A stretch of DNA of 64,000 bases from Escherichia phage vB_EcoM_OE5505. Below are positions 2,271 through 53,532 of the stretch, piece after piece. The notes below the pieces were generated by a model. That model did no database searches. It saw only the letters and a list, made by a program, of their open reading frames with translations, and was not told where the DNA came from. The stretch lies in sequence record NC_054926.1; one strand, 5' to 3'. The position numbers and the translations under genes are program-made. Within the stretch, counting starts at the first letter, position 1, and every line of letters begins with the position of its first letter.

Positions 2271-2296
2271 GGGACCGAAAGGTCCCCCTTTTTATT
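2271..2296. terminator. Bidirectional terminator between convergent genes 24 and rnlB
   Basis: GGGACC-GAAA-GGTCCC hairpin with T-run on one side and A-run on the other. Confidence 0.55.
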
Positions 2297-3300
2297 TAAC
2301 TTACCAATTCAATCCAAGCCGGACGAAGTACATCTTGTACCATTTTAACTAATTCCTTCTTAATCAAAGAAGGATTATCCGCTTGAGTTAGAGTAATACC
2401 TTCACGAGAAGTTTCTTCCAAAATATCTTGAACCGTTAGTCCCATCACCTTTCCAAAATCTTTTGGACCAATTTCACCAATTTTAGAAATAACGTTATTT
2501 ACTCGGTTCAGTGTAACGTAACAAGCTAAAATTCCAACCAATTTGTTATCAGCTTCTGACAACTCAACTTTAGCTTTAATAGGCTTATCAGACTTTTTCT
2601 TTTCACTAAATTTAGAGTTCTTGCATTTGATAGCTACGCGATTGCCATTAGGCATCCAAGAAGGATAACAAGGTTTCAATACATATCCTTCAGCGGTAAA
2701 TACTTCGCCTTTTACTTCAGCATTCCAAACGCATTTATTTGCATCAACTAATCCAGCATGGTCTACCGTAAAATTATAATCCTGGACGACAGAATCTAAA
2801 TCATTTGGCAATTTAATAAGTTCTTCAAATTTACCGCGACCTAAAAGTGGAGCCATTTTAAATTTAAATGTATTGCAGAATGATTCCATCATATAATCAT
2901 CGACATAAGTCACATCACCACTTTCTGTAGTAACAATAATGTCAAATACATAAAAATCTTTATCGCCATAATCGACATTCTTCTGAATGCCAGGTCCGGC
3001 GAATTCACCGAAGACTTGATAAGATACAACCGCTGAAGTTTCCATAATATCTTGTACTGCTTTAATGGAATCAGCGTAATTCTTCAAAATAATTTCATAC
3101 CCAAAGAAATCTTCAGCAGGAAGAATAGGACCAGTGCGTTTAGCACAAGTTACTTTATCACGCTCAATAATTAATGAGAAATTTGTGCCATGAATCTTTT
3201 CACGAGCTACCCATTCGCCACCAGTCAATCCTAAACTATAAAGTTTTTCAATGAATTTAGAATTGTAATGATTTTCAAGACTGCTATACTTTTTAAACAT
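2296..3300 (-). CDS. rnlB: RNA ligase 2 (Rnl2)
   Basis: 334-aa ORF matching T4 Rnl2 N-terminus ([16 protein letters not shown]...KIHGTNFS). Confidence 0.85.
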
Positions 3301-3309
3301 AATTAATCC

Positions 3310-3588
3310 TCAAAATGTAATTTCTAACCAATCACCATCACGCTGATCACTATTGACTTTAAAGCTAAATCCTTCTTTTCTCAGCCAATCACCAATTTCT
3401 TCAGTAATCAATTTATCGCGAGCAGTACAATAATAACTAAAATATGTTTTACCTTGTTCAGCTGCTTTATTAGCAAGTTCCGAAAAATCTTTAATAAAAC
3501 ACTCTAGCTTAAACTGTTTACTTTTAAGTGCTTTTTCGCGTAATCGATTAGCAAAAGATTCATTTTCATAAAGATCATACTGTTCCAT
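3310..3588 (-). CDS. Hypothetical protein (position of T4 24.2)
   Basis: 92-aa ORF, tightly packed with neighbours. Confidence 0.55.
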   Translation of the reverse strand: MEQYDLYENESFANRLREKALKSKQFKLECFIKDFSELANKAAEQGKTYFSYYCTARDKLITEEIGDWLRKEGFSFKVNSDQRDGDWLEITF

Positions 3589-3591
3589 TTT

Positions 3592-3789
3592 TCACCTTTT
3601 ATTAATATGTCTTTTTCTATAGACAACTTTTTCTCGAGTTTCAAATTTATTCTTAGCAGTCATAGCTCGAGCCCATAATACAGCCACTTCTTTCGCCTGT
3701 AAGTTTAATTCACGAGCAATTTCAATGAATGACTTTCCAGACTCATGAAGAGTAAACACCACAACCTCAGTTCTCATAATCAATCTCAT
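3592..3789 (-). CDS. Small basic protein, possible helix-turn-helix (position of T4 24.3)
   Basis: 65-aa ORF with an HTH-like segment SFIEIARELNLQAKEVAVLWARA. Confidence 0.5.
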   Translation of the reverse strand: MRLIMRTEVVVFTLHESGKSFIEIARELNLQAKEVAVLWARAMTAKNKFETREKVVYRKRHINKR

Positions 3790-3856: not shown

Positions 3857-3875
3857 AAGGGGCCGAAGCCCCTTA
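3857..3875 (-). terminator. Hairpin terminator downstream of hoc
   Basis: AAGGGGC-CGAA-GCCCCTT palindrome followed by a T-rich tract on the - strand. Confidence 0.5.
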
Positions 3876-3884
3876 TGATTATGA

Positions 3885-5021
3885 TTATGGATAGGTATAG
3901 ATGATACCAGTTTCTAAAGCAGTTTTATGAATGATGTATCCATTGCGTGATTCTTGAACATCAACTTCTGGATAGTCTTTCATCATCTTCTGAAGAGTGT
4001 AACGATGCAGGTAGTATTTACTGTCTGGATCTTCAGTTTTCCAATCTTTACCTTCTTCGGTCATTTTTTGGATTTCATCCATAACCCACCAACCGCACCA
4101 GATATAAGCTGAAGTACGATGTGGAAGAGGATGAACATAAGGCAATTCACCTTCTGGTTCCGGAGCAACTTTATCAGTTACCTGAACTTGGCCTGTTGCT
4201 TTAACTGTTTTACTATCATAGTCGGTTGCTGTAACGACAGCAGTAACTTCAATAGTTTGACTTCCAATAGATGAGGTGTCAATGGTGTATACGTTAGTTG
4301 ACCCTTCTACAGGAGAAGAATCTTTCTTCCATGAATAAGTAATTTATGCTGCTTCAGGTGCTCCAGTAACATTAGCCGTAAATGTAGCCGAAGCATCTTG
4401 CTGAACGTTAATAGAAGGAGGAGTCAATGTAACCTGTGGATTCATTGTCTTCTTATTAACTGTCAATGATACTTCATTAGAAGTAACTTCCTTTTCATTG
4501 TAATTTTCTGCAGTTACTTGCGCTACACATTTAATTCTTTTTACTCCACTTGTAGTTGGAGTATAGTTAAATGTAGAGTTAGTTTCTCCACCAATTTGAG
4601 AATCATCTACATACCACTTATATGTAGCAGACGCTCCATCAGGTTGAGAAGCTAAGGCAGCAGTAAATTGAACTGGAGTTCCGATTACTCCTTCCGAAGG
4701 ACTATCAGGAGTTACTGTTATTGTAGTAGTCTGTGTCTTATTTTGAACTGTGATAGTTGTCGTAGTTTCTGCTGTTTCAGGTTCAGCTTCAGATTCTGGA
4801 ACTGTATTTGTTGCAACCACCTTAATAGTCTTTTGACCTGCAGGTCCTTTTAGTACATAGCTAAAAGTTGCTTCAGCTCCATCCTGTGGAACATTATCTA
4901 CACTCCAAGCATAGGTAATAGTTCCACCTTCAGTTTGACCACTGGGTGCAGCAGTAAACTGCTTGGTTTCATCAATAACTCCTGTTGGGGTTTTAGGAGT
5001 TATATCAACTGTAAAAGTCAT
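3885..5021 (-). pseudogene. hoc: hoc (outer capsid Ig-like decoration protein) interrupted by one in-frame TAA at 4344-4346
   Basis: ORF 4344..5021 matches the Hoc N-terminal domains; the same frame runs with no further stop through 3885 and encodes the Hoc C-terminal capsid-binding region (…ELPYVHPLPHRTSAYIWCGWW…). Confidence 0.8.
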
Positions 5022-5030
5022 AAGTTATCC

Positions 5031-5711
5031 TTATTTTAATGTTACGAAAGAAGAATTGCGTGTTTCACGAATTAGAACTGATCCATCACGATTAATGTAG
5101 TAAATTAAGCTAAATAACGTTTGGTGCGCCGACGCGTGTTCAAAACTAGTTGGGTGAGATTTCCAATCCGGAGTTTCAGCAATCCATTGATAAATCCACC
5201 AAGGAACAGTACAGAATCCTGGATTTTTTCCAATCAGCTGAAGATTCGGACTAAAGTTTTCCGGAAGAGTAAATACAGACGGCTTTTCAAATTCAATAAT
5301 CTCAGCTACAGCCTGTTCGAATTTTTCTTCAACAAAAGGAGTATCTTCAATCAAAACATCAGTATTTTCAGGAATTTTATCCGTTTCTACTACTTCAATT
5401 TTAATGTCAGATTTAACCGGAGAATCAATCAGAAGTGCTGCCTCTGGATTGACTTCTTCATCGTCATATTTTAATCCGTCTGCGGCATCAGCAGCATCGA
5501 TTAAGTCTTTAATAGATAACCCATCAGTCTCTGGCATAGGTTCACTAGCGAGCTTCTGGAGGGCTTCTTCAATATCATTAACGATATTATCAAAAGATTT
5601 ATTCTTTTTGACCTTTATACCAAACTGTTCAGCATATTCAGCTAATTTAGCTTTAGCTTCTTTATTATCATCAAGAGCCTTCAGCTCTGCAATATAATCT
5701 TTATCTATCAT
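5031..5711 (-). CDS. inh: Acidic 226-aa protein at the T4 inh position (prohead protease inhibitor-like)
   Basis: Size and position between hoc and uvsW; assignment by synteny. Confidence 0.6.
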   Translation of the reverse strand: MIDKDYIAELKALDDNKEAKAKLAEYAEQFGIKVKKNKSFDNIVNDIEEALQKLASEPMPETDGLSIKDLIDAADAADGLKYDDEEVNPEAALLIDSPVKSDIKIEVVETDKIPENTDVLIEDTPFVEEKFEQAVAEIIEFEKPSVFTLPENFSPNLQLIGKNPGFCTVPWWIYQWIAETPDWKSHPTSFEHASAHQTLFSLIYYINRDGSVLIRETRNSSFVTLK

Positions 5712-5724
5712 AATATTTCCTCAG

Positions 5725-5732
5725 TATAAATA
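5725..5732 (+). promoter_or_regulatory. T4 late promoter upstream of uvsW
   Basis: TATAAATA about 30 bp upstream of the uvsW ATG. Confidence 0.5.
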
Positions 5733-5761
5733 TAGATATATTTATTACATGGTATTTAGAC

Positions 5762-7273
5762 ATGACTGACATTAAAGTACATTTTTATGATTTTAGTCAC
5801 GTGAGAATTGATTGTGAAGAAAGTACATTTCATGAACTCCGTGATTTCTTTAGCTTTGAAGCTGATGGGTATCGTTTTAATCCGAAGTACAAATATGGTC
5901 ACTGGGATGGACGAATTCGTCTTTTAGATTATAATCGCCTTCTTCCATTCGGTTTAGTCGGGCAAATTAAAAAGTTCTGTGATAACTTTGGCTATAAAGC
6001 CTGGATTGACCCGCAAATTAACGAAAAAGAAGAATTATCAAGAAAAGATTTTGATGAATGGCTTTCTAAATTAGAAATCTATTCAGGAAATAAAAGAATT
6101 GAACCGCATTGGTATCAAAAAGATGCAGTGTTCGAAGGATTAGTTAATCGTCGTAGAATTCTTAATCTTCCAACATCCGCAGGTAAATCTTTAATTCAAG
6201 CTTTGCTTGCTCGGTATTATTTGGAAAATTATGAAGGCAAAATTCTTATTATTGTTCCAACAACTGCTCTGACAACTCAGATGGCTGATGACTTTGTTGA
6301 CTATCGTTTATTCAGTCATGCAATGATAAAGAAAATCGGTGGTGGAGCATCAAAAGATGATAAATATAAAAATGATGCACCGGTCGTTGTTGGTACATGG
6401 CAAACTGTAGTAAAACAACCGAAAGAATGGTTCTCACAGTTTGGAATGATGATGAATGATGAATGTCATCTTGCTACAGGAAAAAGTATTTCATCTATCA
6501 TATCAGGTTTAAATAACTGCATGTTCAAATTCGGTTTGTCTGGTTCATTACGTGATGGCAAAGCCAATATCATGCAGTATGTTGGAATGTTCGGTGAAAT
6601 ATTTAAGCCAGTAACGACCTCTAAATTAATGGAAGATGGACAAGTAACTGAGTTAAAAATTAATAGTATTTTTCTTCGCTATCCCGATGAGTTCACTACT
6701 AAATTAAAGGGAAAAACTTACCAAGAAGAAATAAAAATTATTACTGGGCTTAGTAAAAGAAATAAATGGATCGCTAAATTAGCTATTAAGCTTGCACAAA
6801 AAGATGAAAACGCTTTTGTCATGTTTAAACACGTATCGCACGGTAAAGCTATTTTCGATTTAATTAAAAATGAATACGATAAAGTTTATTACGTATCAGG
6901 GGAAGTTGATACCGAAACCCGCAATATAATGAAAACCTTAGCTGAAAACGGTAAAGGAATAATTATAGTAGCTAGTTATGGTGTATTTTCTACTGGTATT
7001 TCAGTTAAAAATCTGCATCACGTTGTTTTAGCACACGGTGTTAAATCTAAAATTATTGTATTGCAAACAATAGGTCGCGTATTACGTAAACATGGTTCTA
7101 AAACAATCGCAACAGTCTGGGACCTCATAGATGATTGTGGTGTTAAGCCAAAATCTGCTAATACGAAAAAGAAATACGTTCATTTGAACTATCTTTTAAA
7201 ACACGGCATTGATCGTATTCAGCGCTACGCAGATGAAAAATTTAATTACGTAATGAAAACAGTTAATTTATAA
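5762..7273 (+). CDS. uvsW: UvsW DNA/RNA helicase
   Basis: 503-aa ORF matching T4 UvsW; helicase motifs (PTSAGKS Walker A, DECH box). Confidence 0.9.
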   Translation: MTDIKVHFYDFSHVRIDCEESTFHELRDFFSFEADGYRFNPKYKYGHWDGRIRLLDYNRLLPFGLVGQIKKFCDNFGYKAWIDPQINEKEELSRKDFDEWLSKLEIYSGNKRIEPHWYQKDAVFEGLVNRRRILNLPTSAGKSLIQALLARYYLENYEGKILIIVPTTALTTQMADDFVDYRLFSHAMIKKIGGGASKDDKYKNDAPVVVGTWQTVVKQPKEWFSQFGMMMNDECHLATGKSISSIISGLNNCMFKFGLSGSLRDGKANIMQYVGMFGEIFKPVTTSKLMEDGQVTELKINSIFLRYPDEFTTKLKGKTYQEEIKIITGLSKRNKWIAKLAIKLAQKDENAFVMFKHVSHGKAIFDLIKNEYDKVYYVSGEVDTETRNIMKTLAENGKGIIIVASYGVFSTGISVKNLHHVVLAHGVKSKIIVLQTIGRVLRKHGSKTIATVWDLIDDCGVKPKSANTKKKYVHLNYLLKHGIDRIQRYADEKFNYVMKTVNL

Positions 7274-16145: not shown

Positions 16146-16175
16146 ACTATAACACAACACGAGGGACTTGTAAAC
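16146..16175 (-). promoter_or_regulatory. T4 early-type promoter
   Basis: GTTTAC -35, 17-bp spacer, TATAGT -10 on the - strand; about 40 bp nearly identical to the alc promoter region at 31941-31980. Confidence 0.45.
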
Positions 16176-18226
16176 TACATTTTGAACTTTTTAGACATTC
16201 CGTTGATGTTAACCAAAGAAGCTAAGATTTGAGAAACTTCGCTTTCCTCTTCTTTTGATTCTTCTACAAGGAATTGATTAAATCCAGCCATTGGACGAAC
16301 TTCACCAGTTTCCATTAGATGGTCGCCATCATATACTGATTCTTCTAATTGTTCAGAAGGAGGAACGATTGTACCTTCGATTAGATACTTGTTATAAGCA
16401 GTTTCTTTCATAAAGTAAGTACTTACTTTATTAATCTTCAGTAAAATTCCACGTGGTAGAATAATTTCAGCTTCTGACGGAAATCCTGATAAATGACCCG
16501 GAACGATAACTTTGATTCGCTCAGCTCCTTTAATTACCATACCCACGCTAGTTTCAGCATCTTCATTAGCATATGTAGAATGACTACCCATATGCATCAA
16601 ATCTTCTGCATCAACGGAACCTTCTCCTTCACCAGAAAATACTGCGCCGGAATCATCTAGAGCCATATAGTTTTTACCATGCTCACCGAAGATATTTGGT
16701 TTAAGCGATGTGGATACGAAGTTCTTGAAATAGAACATTTTATTTTCAATGTTATGACGCAAAGTTTTAAAGGTAACTTCTTGTCCACGGTAAAGTGTAG
16801 TTCCTGGAGGAAGAACTGAACCTTTAGCGAATGCAGAATCAAGCGTCTCAATATGTTTAATAGCTCGTTCCATATATTCTTCACGGGTAGAATCTGGTTT
16901 ACCCAAAAGGAACGAGTTCATTTCAACATATGAATCTGCACAATAATCTTCAATTACATCAGATTCAGCTTGAGTTAATCCTTTTGGAGTTACTTCAGTG
17001 CTTGCGTATTCATATGCCTGAGCAGCAGATTCATTAATCAATTTATAAATGCCATTCATGACAAATTGAATAATAGCTGTCTTTTCATCTGGCGTAGCTT
17101 TAGAACCTTTAACCAAATCATTGATAATTTTCTTAATAACATCAAAGCTATTAGAAATATTAATATCAGCAAGATCGCTTAAAATTTTATCAGTCTTATA
17201 ATCAAAGAATTCTTTATTCTTTAAATATTCTTGAGAACCTTGATATGTTATATCGCTCTGTAACTTGATAGATGGATCACGTAAACGTGCATGGGCTAAT
17301 GCAATATGATTTCGGAAGCTTTCGAGTTCATAATCACTAGATTTAAAACGAGAAGCGCTTCTCATACCGCCTATAGCTCCTTTGCTGAAGTTTGAACCAA
17401 TTTGAATAACGCCAGAGTTCATTGGTCCTTCTGCTTTATACACCGGAACTTTAGATTCAAACTCTTGATATTTCTTAGCAGCGAAGCTATCACCCTGAAG
17501 TGAAGCATCAACAGTAGAATATTGAGCTTGTGCTGCTAATCGACGACTAATTTTAGTTTTCTGAATAACAGCTTGGTCCGTGCGCTTATCATTTTCTAAA
17601 GCAATAGAAGCAGCAACAGCTTTAGGAACAGCATTACCTGTTTTAACATCTACATAAACATCACCAACCTTTGATTCAACTTTTGTGAATAACTCAGTTG
17701 AAATAGGAGGTACACCTGGAATGTCTTCTAAATTGGCATTTTTACGATAAACCATAATATATGCGTACTTTTTATCATAATCCCAGATTTCCTTTAAAAG
17801 AACATATCGACCTGCTCCTTTAGTACGTACTAAACGGTCAGCAATAACTTGCATTTGACGAGCTGCGCCATTTGTTTTACTCTTTAGTACACGGAATAAG
17901 CACGCGTCAATTTTATACTGCTTCATTGTTTGAAGAGCAGTATCAAAAACGGCATTAATGACACCAATTGGATTTCCACCCAAGTTTTTAAGCTTAACTA
18001 ATGATAGTTTCTCATTAACACCTATCATTACGATATGCATCATTTTATCGCCTGGCTTAACGTTTTTATTCGTATCACCACCAGAGGTGTATGTACAAAA
18101 TCTAAATCCAGGAAGCACGCTTTCTTCGCCGGCTTGAATAGCAAAAATTTGTGGTATTTTATGCTTAGGATTTAAGTTAACAACCGGCGCCGAAGCGCCG
18201 TCAAATAATTCTGTAATAAGTTCCAT
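16175..18226 (-). CDS. Alt-like ADP-ribosyltransferase, diverged paralog of alt
   Basis: 683 aa; shares the MELITELFD N-terminus and overall architecture with the adjacent alt product; R (LYRGQ), STS (FVSTSL) and ExE (EAEIILPRG) motifs retained. Confidence 0.75.
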   Translation of the reverse strand: MELITELFDGASAPVVNLNPKHKIPQIFAIQAGEESVLPGFRFCTYTSGGDTNKNVKPGDKMMHIVMIGVNEKLSLVKLKNLGGNPIGVINAVFDTALQTMKQYKIDACLFRVLKSKTNGAARQMQVIADRLVRTKGAGRYVLLKEIWDYDKKYAYIMVYRKNANLEDIPGVPPISTELFTKVESKVGDVYVDVKTGNAVPKAVAASIALENDKRTDQAVIQKTKISRRLAAQAQYSTVDASLQGDSFAAKKYQEFESKVPVYKAEGPMNSGVIQIGSNFSKGAIGGMRSASRFKSSDYELESFRNHIALAHARLRDPSIKLQSDITYQGSQEYLKNKEFFDYKTDKILSDLADINISNSFDVIKKIINDLVKGSKATPDEKTAIIQFVMNGIYKLINESAAQAYEYASTEVTPKGLTQAESDVIEDYCADSYVEMNSFLLGKPDSTREEYMERAIKHIETLDSAFAKGSVLPPGTTLYRGQEVTFKTLRHNIENKMFYFKNFVSTSLKPNIFGEHGKNYMALDDSGAVFSGEGEGSVDAEDLMHMGSHSTYANEDAETSVGMVIKGAERIKVIVPGHLSGFPSEAEIILPRGILLKINKVSTYFMKETAYNKYLIEGTIVPPSEQLEESVYDGDHLMETGEVRPMAGFNQFLVEESKEEESEVSQILASLVNINGMSKKFKM

Positions 18227-18229
18227 GAT

Positions 18230-20287
18230 TTATCCTTGAACGAACTTGTAAGGCATGTTTGCAATATCTATACAAGACGCAATAATTCCAAGAGATGATT
18301 CTACTTTCTGTTTAACATTTGATGAAACAAATGATGCAAAGTCAACTCTGTCTTCTACTTCAATATCACCTGTCATTGTAACTACTTCGCCGGTTTCCAT
18401 TAGACGGTCACCGTCATAAATTACCGATTCGGTGAGTTCTTCTGTGGTCATAACTTCAGCTTGAATAAGCTTGTTGTTAGTTTTAACTGTTCCATCATTG
18501 TAAGATGCATCGGTTATTTTATTAACTTTGACCATTAATCCACGTGGCAAAATGACTTCCATTTCATTTGAAGGTGCTAAACTTCCACCTGGTAAAACAA
18601 CATTGACTTTATCAGCCCCAGTAATAACCCATCCAATTCCAACTAAATTATCGCTAGAATTTACTAGTCCTTCATCAGTTTTATCAATAGAAACACTTAA
18701 ACGCTTTTCGTCTGGTAAAACACCCACAGATGAATCAGTCATCCAGGTACCAAAAATATTTGGATATAATGATGTTGACACAAAATTTCTAAAATAAAAA
18801 ACTCGATTTTTTACCAGTGCTTCATATATTGAAGGTAACATTCGTTGTGAACGATACAAAGTAATACCTTTTGGTAATCGTTCACCATTTTTAAAGGCTG
18901 AATCTAAATTATCAATAGCTTTTTCTATGTCAGATGCTGTCAAAATACTTGTACGCTCATCTGGATTATATAATCCCAAAAGAGCATTATTTATGTCTAC
19001 ATATCCTGAACCTACGTATTCACGAATTCCGCGTTTTTGTGCTGGTGTGTATTTAGATGAATCTTTATTTTCGACTATAGGATGTAATGACCATCCAGCG
19101 GTAAGAGCATATCCACGCAATTCTCTTCGAATAATCTTTGTTTTTATTGCATTCCAAGAATTTTGTACTAACTCATTCGCAGCATCTTGATTTAAATGCG
19201 AATGCTTGTTAATGTTTCTTTCTAACCAAGCACCTTTATATTTTTCTAAAGTATCATCAACTATAGAAGCAATAGTTTCTAAAGTTTTTATTGAAGTAAT
19301 AGATTCTTTTCGTAATCTTTCTAAAGCTTTATTTTTTATTTCTGCATTAACATCAGATTCTTTATCTTCAGGAATTATAGAAGCTTCTCTGAATGCCATT
19401 CCAGCTGTAACACTACTAAGAGCATTCTCTAATGCAAATCCTGAAGTAGAAATAACAGTTAATTCATTAGCGTCAGAAATTAAAGGAGCGTCAGCAGGTT
19501 TATTTAATTCTGCTGCTGAAGCCTCAAATTTTTGAAACATCGGCGTTTCAAATCTAGAAGATTCCAATGATTGACTTTGCGCAATTGCTCTACGGGAAAT
19601 TTTAACTTTAACGATTACAGCTTGGTCAGAACGTTTATCATTTTCTTGCGCAATAGATGCTGCAATTGCCTCATTTTTAGTTACTTGAGCTCCAGTATCT
19701 TTATTGATATAAACATCACCGACCTTCGATTCAACTTTAGTAAAGAGCTCAGTACTAATTTCCGGAACTCCCGGAATGTCTTCTAGTGATACATTTTTGC
19801 GATGTATAAGAATATATGCATACTTTTTATCGTAATCCCAGAGTTCCTTAAGAAGGACGTATCTGCCACCTGAACGACTGCGGATAAGTCTATCAGCAAT
19901 AAGTTGAATTTGACGAGCTTGACCAGCAGTTTTAGACTTAAGAATACGGAGCATGCAGGCATCAATTTTATACTGACGCATCGTTTGCATTGCAACTGTA
20001 AAAACTGAATTGATATAATTAATTGGGCTTGGACCAAGACCTTTTAATTTAGCAATTGAACCTTTAGCAGTTAATGTAAAAGGAACAATATGCATCATTT
20101 TATCGCCCATCTTTAAATCGCGATTAGTATCACCTCCAGATGTATAGGTACATAAACGAAAGCCTGGTTGTTCAATTGCATCATCAACATGAACTGAAAA
20201 AATTTGCGGTATTTTCTTCTTTGGATTTAAGTTTGTAATCGGAAGAGTAGTATCTTCGTCAAATAATTCTGTAATAAGTTCCATCAT
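18230..20287 (-). CDS. alt: Alt ADP-ribosyltransferase (packaged, injected with the DNA)
   Basis: 685-aa ORF near-identical to T4 Alt as recalled; R (LYRSQ), STS and ExE (EMEVILPRG) motifs. Confidence 0.85.
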   Translation of the reverse strand: MMELITELFDEDTTLPITNLNPKKKIPQIFSVHVDDAIEQPGFRLCTYTSGGDTNRDLKMGDKMMHIVPFTLTAKGSIAKLKGLGPSPINYINSVFTVAMQTMRQYKIDACMLRILKSKTAGQARQIQLIADRLIRSRSGGRYVLLKELWDYDKKYAYILIHRKNVSLEDIPGVPEISTELFTKVESKVGDVYINKDTGAQVTKNEAIAASIAQENDKRSDQAVIVKVKISRRAIAQSQSLESSRFETPMFQKFEASAAELNKPADAPLISDANELTVISTSGFALENALSSVTAGMAFREASIIPEDKESDVNAEIKNKALERLRKESITSIKTLETIASIVDDTLEKYKGAWLERNINKHSHLNQDAANELVQNSWNAIKTKIIRRELRGYALTAGWSLHPIVENKDSSKYTPAQKRGIREYVGSGYVDINNALLGLYNPDERTSILTASDIEKAIDNLDSAFKNGERLPKGITLYRSQRMLPSIYEALVKNRVFYFRNFVSTSLYPNIFGTWMTDSSVGVLPDEKRLSVSIDKTDEGLVNSSDNLVGIGWVITGADKVNVVLPGGSLAPSNEMEVILPRGLMVKVNKITDASYNDGTVKTNNKLIQAEVMTTEELTESVIYDGDRLMETGEVVTMTGDIEVEDRVDFASFVSSNVKQKVESSLGIIASCIDIANMPYKFVQG

Positions 20288-20307
20288 AGCCTCTCTAGTG
20301 TTTATTC

Positions 20308-20315
20308 TATTTATA
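20308..20315 (-). promoter_or_regulatory. Late promoter for alt
   Basis: TATAAATA on the - strand about 20 bp upstream of the alt ATG. Confidence 0.5.
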
Positions 20316-20320
20316 AAATT

Positions 20321-20338
20321 AAAGGCCCGAAGGCCTTT
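20321..20338 (-). terminator. Tetraloop hairpin between the 62-aa ORF and alt
   Basis: AAAGGCC-CGAA-GGCCTTT. Confidence 0.4.
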
Positions 20339-20525
20339 AATAATCTAGTGGTAAGAGAGTACGGTATATTTCAAACTTTGGACCTTTTTCATAGGCATCA
20401 AATGTTTCTGTGAATTTATTATAAGCGTATGCATCTACAAATTCGAGAATGACTTGTGATACAGAAGTAGAAACATCTCCACCTTCTTTTTGAGCAATGA
20501 CAATTGTTTCTAAGTAAGCTTTCAT
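20337..20525 (-). CDS. Hypothetical 62-aa protein between genes 30 and alt
   Basis: ORF; start overlaps the ligase stop. Confidence 0.5.
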   Translation of the reverse strand: MKAYLETIVIAQKEGGDVSTSVSQVILEFVDAYAYNKFTETFDAYEKGPKFEIYRTLLPLDY

Positions 20526-50513: not shown

Positions 50514-53498
50514 ATGGCTACTTTAAAACAAATACAATTTAAAAGAAGCAAAACTGCAGGTCAACTTCCTGCTGCTTCAGTATTAGCCGAAGGTGAATTG
50601 GCTATTAATTTAAAAGATAAAACAATTTTCACAAAAGATGACTCAGGCAATGTTATAGAATTAGGTTTAAAATATGGAGGAACTATAAATGGATCTTTAG
50701 AGGTTACAGAAAATATAACTGGAACTTTAATTGGAAATTCTAGTACAGCTACTAAATTGCAAACACCTAGGAAAATTAATGGTATATCTTTTGATGGATC
50801 AAAGGACATTACACTAACTCCATCTGATATAAATGTAAATAGTACAACATTTATAAAAAATAATGGCGAATTACCTGTTGATGCTAATTTAGATGAGTAT
50901 GGGCCTGTTGAAGAATATCTTGGTGTTTGGTCGAAAGCAACTTCAACCAACGCTCAACCAGCAAATAAATTTCCAGAAGAAAATGCTGTAGGTGTGCTAG
51001 AAGTATTTGTGGCCGGTCAATTTGCTGGTACTCAGAGATATACAACTAGATACGGAAATGTTTATATTCGTTCCTTGACTGCTACATGGAACGGAGTAAA
51101 TGGTCCGTGGAGTGTGTGGCGAAATATTCAATCCGGTACTCGTCCACTGTCAACAACAATTGATCTTAATGATCTAGGAGGCGCTGAACACTTTGGTTTG
51201 TGGCGAAATAGTTCAAATTCTATTGCTACCTTTGACAGAAATTTCCCAGAAGAGGGGTTGTCAGCTCAAGGACTTTTAGAAGTATATGAAGGTGGAAACT
51301 ATTCTCGCACACAGAGATATACGACCAGATTTGGTGTTGTTTATACTCGCTGTCTTGCTGCTGCATGGGATGCATCTGCGCCTAATTGGGGACCGTGGCA
51401 ACAAGTCGGTAATGTCACACCAGCGACTTTCTATGATGGAGATCTGAATGATTTTAAAACTCCTGGGTTATATAATATTTTAGGCACTGATGCCGTTATT
51501 AACTGTCCTACCGGTGAAGGTTTGCCGACTGTTATTGTTGGTTTGCTGGAAGTTAAACAGCGTGCTTCTGGTGGTGCTATTTTCCAAAAATTTACTACTG
51601 CCGGAACAGGTGCAACTACCCGCGATCGTATTTTTGAGCGTGCATATACCGGCGGTGTTTGGGGTACATGGAACGAAGTATATACATCTTACTCTCTTCC
51701 AATTACTTTGGGTATGGGTGGTATTAAATCTAACTTAGCAGAGTTAGACTGGCAAACATTTGATTTTGTTCCTGGTAGTATGTTTAGCGTTCCTTTGAAC
51801 AAAATAAAGAACATGCCAGCTAATATGGATTGGGGTACGATTGACGGAAACTTAATTATGTTTTCTGTTGGTCCTAGCGAGCACACTAGCACAGGACGTA
51901 CTGTTCAGGTTTGGCGTGGTACTGTATCCCAGACAAACTACCGTTATTTTGTCGTTCGTGTGTTCGGTAATTCTGGAAATAGAACTTGCACAGTCCGCCG
52001 TGTTGTTCTTGAAGATGGTCGCCACACATGGACAGCTCAACAAGATTTTAATGGTGCTGTTAACTTCGGTGCTCCTACCAATTTTAACTCTACTGTTAAC
52101 CTTAATAACACTACCACATTTAAAACAGAAGTTAAATTCCGCTCGTCGACTGCATTCCGTATGTATGGCGGAAAATTTGGTACATTTTTACGTAATGATG
52201 GAGAGAGTCTTTATATTCTTTCCACCGACGAAGATGATCAAGATGGAAACTTTAATACAAATAGACCTTTCCGTTATGAATTAAGAACTGGTGATGTTAC
52301 TTTAGGTGGTACTAGTGGTGCTAACGTTTTAATTTTAAAACGTGATTCTCTCACCGCATTTTTTGGTGGTGATATTAACATGAAAGGCTTGATGACTTTT
52401 GACGCCGGACGTTTAGGATCACGAGATTATTTTAAATTTAACCATTGGGGTGATAGCAATAACGCTCGTGATAACATTATTCAGTTAGAAGACAGCAAAG
52501 GCGCTCATTTTTCCACTGAACGTACTTTAGCGACTGGTGCAATTAAGACTAAATTTTTTGGTGAAATTGAATCCGATGGTAAATTGGTTATTAAACGTCC
52601 GGGTGATTCTATTGTATTATCAGCACCTGCTAGTAATTCTTTGCATATTCGTGGTGACGTAGACGGGACTGGTAACTGGTATATTGGTAAGGGTGGTGAT
52701 GATAATGGATTAGCGTTCTATAGTTATGCTACTAATGCTGGTGTATACATTACAAACGCAGGGGATATCACGCTAAGTCCAAAAGGCGTCGAAATGGCTC
52801 AGGTCAATAACGTTCGATTATATGTTCATGGTGAACGTTGGACCGCTAGTCAACCAGGTGATTGGGGCAGTCAGTGGCAAGTGGAAGCGCCAATATTCGT
52901 CGATCATGGTTATGTTTCACAGGATTGTTATTATCCAATTATTAAAGGAAGAAGTGTAGTCACCAATCAAGGGTTTGTAACTGCCGTCGATCTTGGTATT
53001 CGTCGTGTCAATAACAATTGGGGACAAGCAATTATTCGTGTTGGATCTGCGGAGGCATCGCCAGCGGCTGGACACCCTAACGCGGTATTTGAATTTCATT
53101 ACGACGGTACTTTCTATTCTCCTGGTAATGGTAACTTTAACGATGTGTATATTCGTTCCGATGGTCGTCTTAAGATTAATAAAAAAGAGCTAGAAAACGG
53201 AGCACTTGAAAAAGTATGCCGACTGAAAGTTTATATTTACGATAAGGTTAAGTCTATTAAAGATCGTAGTGTTATTAAACGTGAAGTTGGTATTATTGCT
53301 CAGGACCTTGAAAAGGAATTACCGGAAGCTGTATCTAAAGTTGAAGTTGATGGATCTGATGTTCTGACAATTTCTAACTCCGCTGTAAATGCTCTTTTAA
53401 TTAAGGCTATCCAAGAAATGAGCGAAGAAATTAAAGAATTGAAAACTCCTTTCTTTACTAAAATTACTCGCAAAATTAGTAAATATTTTAAATTCTAA
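50514..53498 (+). CDS. 37: Long tail fibre distal subunit gp37, T2-type with a C-terminal intramolecular-chaperone-like domain
   Basis: 994-aa ORF; N-terminus [31 protein letters not shown]; C-terminal about 110 aa (…[28 protein letters not shown]…[16 protein letters not shown]…) resembles autoprocessed tail-fibre chaperone domains. Confidence 0.85.
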
Positions 53499-53532
53499 CA
53501 ACAAGGGGCAACGCCCCCTTTGGAGATAAATT

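Follow-up and report, generated by a model that had tools for sequence, protein, structure and literature searches.

The head outer capsid protein gene (hoc) of Escherichia phage vB_EcoM_OE5505 is interrupted by a single in-frame ochre codon, and the probable explanation, in our assessment, is a recent and genuine null mutation of Gln226 to ochre that would give Hoc-less capsids. The phage is a Tequatrovirus with a genome of 168,756 bp and is an isolate from a 2019 coliphage survey (PMC6563267). We examined a stretch of 64,000 nucleotides of this genome, referred to here as the window, and coordinates are those of the window unless another sequence is named (Table 1). As written, hoc of OE5505 is a pseudogene or null allele and not a functional gene. 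Whereas intact Tequatrovirus Hoc (T4 P18056; PDB 5VF3, 8T1X, and 8T9R) is one polypeptide, the OE5505 frame is interrupted at codon 226, so that the domains of an intact Hoc are present as coding sequence only and are not joined in a single open frame.

Identity of the hoc locus and its interrupted frame

Translation of the locus from position 5021 to position 3885 yields 225 sense codons (MTFTVDITPK...ANVTGAPEAA), the TAA at codon 226, a further 152 sense codons (ITYSWKKDSS...GIIYTYP), and the normal TAA at 3885-3887. A preliminary description of the window, made from the sequence alone, had noted an in-frame ochre after ...VTGAPEAA in a gene that is otherwise intact, and both the translation and the comparison with intact alleles bear this out: the 456 nt 3' of the stop are identical at 455 positions to the corresponding part of the intact PYps32T and Sf21 alleles. 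The open frame described downstream of the stop is also present, but the length given for it, 153 codons, includes the final stop, and the sense codons number 152.

The assignment of the gene to hoc, likewise made in that description, agrees with all of our comparisons. With Gln restored at 226, residues 1 to 378 of the resulting 378-aa protein align to residues 1 to 376 of T4 Hoc (5vf3_Z; E = 9e-222), and the gene occupies the T4-like position between inh and 24.3/24.2/rnlB. Pfam identifies a PKD domain at residues 102 to 173 and an Ig I-set domain at residues 195 to 280 of the repaired protein, which has no exact match in the protein collection. At the DNA level, hoc has matches in 677 phage records, labelled Hoc, head outer capsid protein, or similar, and its identity to the 13 alleles that we aligned ranges from 89 to 99% (89% for T4). 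On these matches, the gene is the three-Ig-domain form of the Tequatrovirus head outer capsid protein gene. The order of genes is that of T4 (rnlB, 24.2, 24.3, hoc, inh, uvsW), with hoc on the same strand as inh and as 24.3/24.2/rnlB, and the order inh-hoc-24.3-24.2-rnlB is common to T4, ESh25, and phage 107. The Inh protein encoded next to hoc is an exact match to QBQ79510.1 of vB_EcoM_OE5505.

The gap between inh (5031-5711, minus strand) and uvsW (5762-7273, plus strand), at 5711-5762, is without a homing endonuclease gene. Elsewhere this gap holds segE (in T4) or a homing endonuclease gene (in ESh25 and ECML-134).

Judged from the ATG and the Shine-Dalgarno-like motif ahead of it, hoc retains intact signals for the start of translation. 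A hairpin resembling an intrinsic terminator follows the gene, and there is an annotated terminator at the corresponding site of phage G29. This hairpin makes hoc the last gene of its transcription unit, and no polar effect on other genes would therefore be expected from the stop. Neither inh nor hoc has a late promoter (TATAAATA) just upstream of it on the minus strand, and sigma-70-like matches were no commoner than in shuffled sequence.

Table 1. Features of the hoc locus in the window, and disrupted hoc genes of other phages
Feature	Position	Strand	Remarks
Whole hoc locus	3885..5021	-	379 codons, including the internal ochre and the normal stop
Translated sense codons (225)	4347..5021	-	Ig-like domains 1 and 2 and about the first third of Ig-like domain 3
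Premature ochre, TAA	4344..4346	-	hoc codon 226, equivalent to T4 Gln224; CAA in every relative examined
Untranslated in-frame codons (152)	3888..4343	-	Remainder of Ig-like domain 3; C-terminal capsid-binding domain in full
Capsid-binding domain homolog	3888..4175	-	Codons 283-378, equivalent to T4 residues 281-376
86-aa ORF	3885..4145	-	In-frame TTG start, codon 293; QBQ79508.1/YP_010072468.1
Shine-Dalgarno-like AAGGA	5028..5032	-	6 nt upstream of the hoc ATG (5019-5021); overlaps the inh stop (5031-5033)
Intrinsic-terminator-like hairpin, AAGGGGC-UUCG-GCCCCUU plus T-rich tail	3857..3874	-	10 nt past the hoc stop
Flanking ORF, inh	5031-5711	-	From the window ORF list
Flanking ORF	3592-3789	-	From the window ORF list
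Flanking ORF	3310-3588	-	From the window ORF list
Flanking ORF, rnlB	2296-3300	-	From the window ORF list
ECML-134 hoc (NC_025449)	L018:3838-4968	-	Single in-frame stop at Trp306 (AYI*CGWW)
T2 hoc (AP018813)	L009:5400-6581	-	Annotated as three fragments
G29 hoc (vB_EcoM_G29, MK327940)	L005:301-1774		From the same survey as OE5505

Comparison of the ochre codon with other alleles

We aligned 14 hoc alleles with MAFFT, namely, those of the window, ESh25, AR1, G29, PYps32T, ZCEC15, T4, T2, Sf21, KNP1, ES12, LF73P3, Sa45lw, and FL33. Codon 226 is CAA (Gln) in 13 of the 13 other alleles, T4 included, in accordance with the change from CAA to TAA that the preliminary description had proposed by comparison with T4. 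Because all 13 carry CAA, the alignment identifies the lesion as one C-to-T transition at coding nt 676, which is a G-to-A change at position 4346 of the plus strand. ESh25, whose hoc is the closest full-length relative (98.0% identity), differs at codon 226 by this single C/T difference. Across the 1,137 positions of the gene, three are private to OE5505: 329, 676 (the stop), and 739.

A 101-nt query centered on the stop was compared by megablast with 50,697 phage records. Seventeen records were identical to it at 100 of 101 positions, and not one of the 496 matching records was identical at 101 of 101. The degenerate pattern for the TAA allele (GCN TAA ATT ACN TAY TCN TGG AAR AAR GA) had no match in the viral_contigs, genome_contigs, or metagenome_contigs collections, but the control pattern for the CAA allele found just two loci in viral_contigs, so that a negative result in these collections says little. 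The apparent uniqueness of the allele rests mostly on the 101-nt comparison, for which the records were those of INPHARED. We considered programmed readthrough or recoding and rejected it because the stop is conserved in no relative (CAA in the 13 alleles; 0 of 496 identical 101-mers).

Downstream frame, age of the lesion, and assembly quality

The open frame downstream of the stop is not a product of chance. From base composition, 152 open codons have a probability of 2.6e-5, shuffling of the downstream 456 nt gave stop-free sequences in 3 of 200,000 cases, and the other two frames of the same stretch hold 6 and 16 stops. Measured against more distant alleles, dN/dS downstream of the stop was 0.02 to 0.27 and no higher than upstream. 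The gene has one lesion and no indels relative to three-Ig alleles. By these measures, hoc of OE5505 is free of pseudogene decay, with neither multiple lesions nor relaxed constraint. The lack of decay downstream of the stop implies that the inactivation is either very recent or an artifact.

To check the assembly, we mapped 96 annotated proteins of phage 107 on the 64-kb window by tblastn. This phage is the closest overall relative; its identity of 97.5% over 20 kb is the highest for a deposited phage. An in-frame stop was found in hoc only (1 of 96 reference proteins), and no other gene had a frameshift. The mapping raised a few other flags, none of them a broken gene: gp23 falls beyond the window, and the homolog of gp24.3 aligned over 91% of its length. 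With hoc as the sole broken gene among 96, the assembly is not generally poor, and we rejected poor overall quality as an explanation (one stop or frameshift among 96 genes in 64 kb). A lone stop-creating substitution in a dispensable gene, within 64 kb that is otherwise clean, is as expected of a real mutation without purifying selection.

A reference-free scan of the window returned 10 pairs of open segments in the same frame split by one stop. Since no mapped reference protein other than Hoc is interrupted by a stop, the remaining pairs represent neighboring genes. At 16175-20344 (minus strand), ORFs of 704 and 684 codons share a frame with one TAA between them; this pair was rejected as a broken gene, because it corresponds to two tandem Alt-like ADP-ribosyltransferase genes of relatives.

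The other two flags of the mapping, likewise no gene breaks, are differences from phage 107. The homolog of gp37 (distal long tail fiber), at about 50514-53500 on the plus strand, aligns to that of phage 107 over the first 53% only, and its receptor-binding distal half is diverged. In the region syntenic to L016:40434-40766, the window lacks a counterpart of a 110-aa hypothetical protein that phage 107 encodes.

Pieces of the gene and their annotation

The stop falls within Ig-like domain 3 and precedes the capsid-binding domain. In T4 Hoc, this domain comprises residues 281 to 376 (PMC10385173), and we mapped it on OE5505 through the end-to-end match with T4 Hoc, allowing for one 6-nt (2-codon) difference in length near nt 232. 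The homolog of T4 residues 281 to 376 begins after codon 226, which upholds the statement in the preliminary description that a truncated product would be without the capsid-binding domain.

In the public record of vB_EcoM_OE5505, the gene appears as two separate "Hoc-like head decoration" CDSs of 225 and 86 aa, and the split is uncommented. The survey paper makes no mention of Hoc and describes the genomes as sequenced and assembled with PacBio RSII/HGAP or Illumina MiSeq/SPAdes (PMC6563267). The 225-aa fragment is an exact match to QBQ79509.1/YP_010072469.1 (ORF 4344..5021). The 86-aa ORF opens with a TTG that lies 66 codons past the stop, its ribosome-binding context is weak (AAGG with a spacing of 4 nt), and it misses the initial ~10 residues of the capsid-binding domain. 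Given this context, the ORF is probably not expressed, and the 86-aa CDS is probably an annotation artifact. The correct annotation would be a single disrupted gene or pseudogene in place of the two CDSs.

Origin of the stop and its expected consequences

The preliminary description had left three origins side by side, namely, a very recent inactivation, a laboratory hoc-minus allele, and a sequencing error, and very recent inactivation is the best supported of them on the basis of the few private positions (3 of 1,137), the lack of decay, and the position of hoc as the sole broken gene of 96. A single, very recent C-to-T change would have turned Gln226 (CAA) into ochre inside Ig-like domain 3. 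The base after the premature stop is A, and translation would end at UAA-A with release of a soluble fragment of 225 residues that comprises Ig1, Ig2, and a third of Ig3. As this fragment would have no capsid-binding domain, the centers of the gp23 hexamers would be left empty and the virions would be Hoc-less. Hoc is nonessential in the laboratory (PMC10385173), and the phage should therefore be viable and plate normally. Fixation of the mutation most likely came about by drift or through a bottleneck, whether in nature, not long before the phage was isolated, or in the course of plaque purification and propagation. If OE5505 behaves as T4 hoc mutants do, normal plating would be accompanied by a loss of Hoc-dependent antigenicity and particle dispersion, and, by the same analogy, the free Hoc sites on its capsid could take Hoc supplied in trans. 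Mucus adherence, another surface property that depends on Hoc, would be lost as well.

The closest parallel is T4 HAP1, in which a spontaneous C496T mutation changes Gln166 of hoc to ochre and Hoc is not incorporated into the capsid (PMC3127757, PMC10580926). In both phages, a single C-to-T change converts CAA to TAA within the Ig-like region, upstream of the capsid-binding domain, which is lost, and the remainder of the gene is intact. Hoc-less capsids, as shown for HAP1, are expected of OE5505 as well. The stop lies at codon 166, in Ig domain 2, in HAP1 but at codon 226, in Ig domain 3, in OE5505, and whereas the loss of Hoc was shown on HAP1 capsids, the virion phenotype of OE5505 is predicted from its sequence. 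We rejected HAP1 itself as the source of the allele: C496T and Gln166 belong to T4, and the change in OE5505 is at nt 676, codon 226, of a phage that is not T4.

An error of sequencing, assembly, or consensus would mean that the phage really carries CAA and encodes an intact 378-aa Hoc, the T being a miscall or a minority variant. We regard this as unlikely, although it has an appreciable chance of being true. It is compatible with a single-base difference found in one deposited genome only and with a repaired protein that is a normal Hoc, and it accounts for the lack of downstream decay equally well as a very recent mutation does. T-even DNA is also heavily modified, which may disturb some sequencing chemistries. 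However, the residual consensus errors of PacBio HGAP and Illumina SPAdes assemblies are mostly indels and not substitutions, and of the 96 genes mapped over 64 kb, hoc alone is interrupted by a stop or frameshift. In addition, the stop falls in one of the few dispensable structural genes, which is the prediction for a real mutation without selection, and real-looking hoc lesions are found in independent genomes, that of HAP1 having been confirmed experimentally. A laboratory allele, deliberately made or selected (for example, in a phage-display strain or a mutagenized stock), is scarcely credible. The change from CAA to TAA is a classical outcome of GC-to-AT mutagenesis, and hoc-minus strains of T4 are in wide use for display, but this genome is not that of T4 (89% identity to T4 in hoc; 97.5% in the best 20-kb match to a deposited phage), and the known HAP1 allele is at another codon (Gln166). 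The occurrence of the split in the public record of a survey isolate, together with the 89% identity, makes a laboratory hoc-minus strain very unlikely.

Bypass of the stop or compensation for it is also unlikely, and we would put its chances very low. A suppressor tRNA or readthrough would yield full-length Hoc, and a restart at the TTG of codon 293 would yield a free capsid-binding domain. T4-type phages encode tRNAs of their own (up to 12; PMC6563267), and those of OE5505 are clustered beyond the window. The perfectly preserved downstream frame speaks for bypass, and the 86-aa TTG ORF, with AAGG 4 nt upstream, spans most of the capsid-binding domain and is a publicly annotated CDS. Against bypass, UAA followed by A is a stop context that is not leaky, and the 64-kb window contains no tRNA genes. 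The allele is private to one genome and is hence not a programmed feature. The only plausible restart is weak, with a poor Shine-Dalgarno sequence and spacing, a start far past the stop, and a product that drops the beginning of the domain. Moreover, the equivalent ochre in T4 HAP1 yields Hoc-less capsids. A recent and genuine null mutation thus remains the reading that we favor.

Other disrupted hoc genes

Inactivation of hoc is recurrent in deposited T-even genomes, and OE5505 represents a new allele of a well-known type of event. ECML-134 resembles it in several respects: it is an environmental Tequatrovirus, its hoc has one stop in a frame that is otherwise intact, and the gene is annotated as two "Hoc-like head decoration" CDSs. 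The stop of ECML-134, however, lies inside the capsid-binding domain, so that all three Ig-like domains are translated, whereas OE5505 loses the whole domain. The T-even phage T2 also has an inactivated hoc in this syntenic position, but the damage is multiple: 11 nt are deleted near codon 56 and 1 nt near nt 488, and the frame is shifted once more near the 3' end. Whereas the T2 gene is an old pseudogene in decay, that of OE5505 has one lesion and no decay. In G29, hoc has an insertion of 343 nt relative to the three-Ig form, a length not divisible by three, and its annotation consists of two overlapping "PKD domain protein" CDSs; this is either a frameshifted gene or an indel error. Short Hoc fragments from SV76, BYEP02, a T4 variant, and ENA/Logan contigs fall in the same protein clusters.

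The recurrence could reflect selection and not drift, with OE5505, ECML-134, G29, T2, and T4 HAP1 being convergent adaptive knockouts of the Ig fibers of the capsid, but we consider this improbable. The adaptive setting may be, for example, enrichment or propagation on laboratory hosts, or niches where the adhesion or immunogenicity conferred by Hoc is costly. In a variant of the same idea, two useful products may be made, a free Ig fragment and a capsid-binding stub that arises by restart from the 86-aa ORF.

If the mutation is real, OE5505 would be a natural Hoc-less Tequatrovirus. It would then provide a comparator other than T4 in studies of what Hoc contributes to particle dispersion, immunogenicity, and mucus adherence, and its free Hoc sites could make it a display scaffold. 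Alongside ECML-134, T2, and G29, it indicates that hoc is lost repeatedly in isolates. Because Hoc shapes the interaction of the virion with animals, such losses matter in the choice of therapeutic phages. The practical value is modest, and hoc of OE5505 reveals no new mechanism.

The length of hoc differs among very close relatives. We compared the gene of the window (3885-5021) with those of AR1 (L004:301-1725), PYps32T (L006:301-1725), and Sf21 (L010:301-1725) and with protein P0031. OE5505, ESh25, and ZCEC15 have a hoc of 1,137 nt with three Ig-like domains. The genes of AR1, PYps32T, and Sf21 are 1,425 nt long, with 288 extra nt (one more Ig-like domain) after about nt 292, and the remaining sequence is up to 98.9% identical. 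A Hoc of 282 aa, apparently with two Ig-like domains, also exists.
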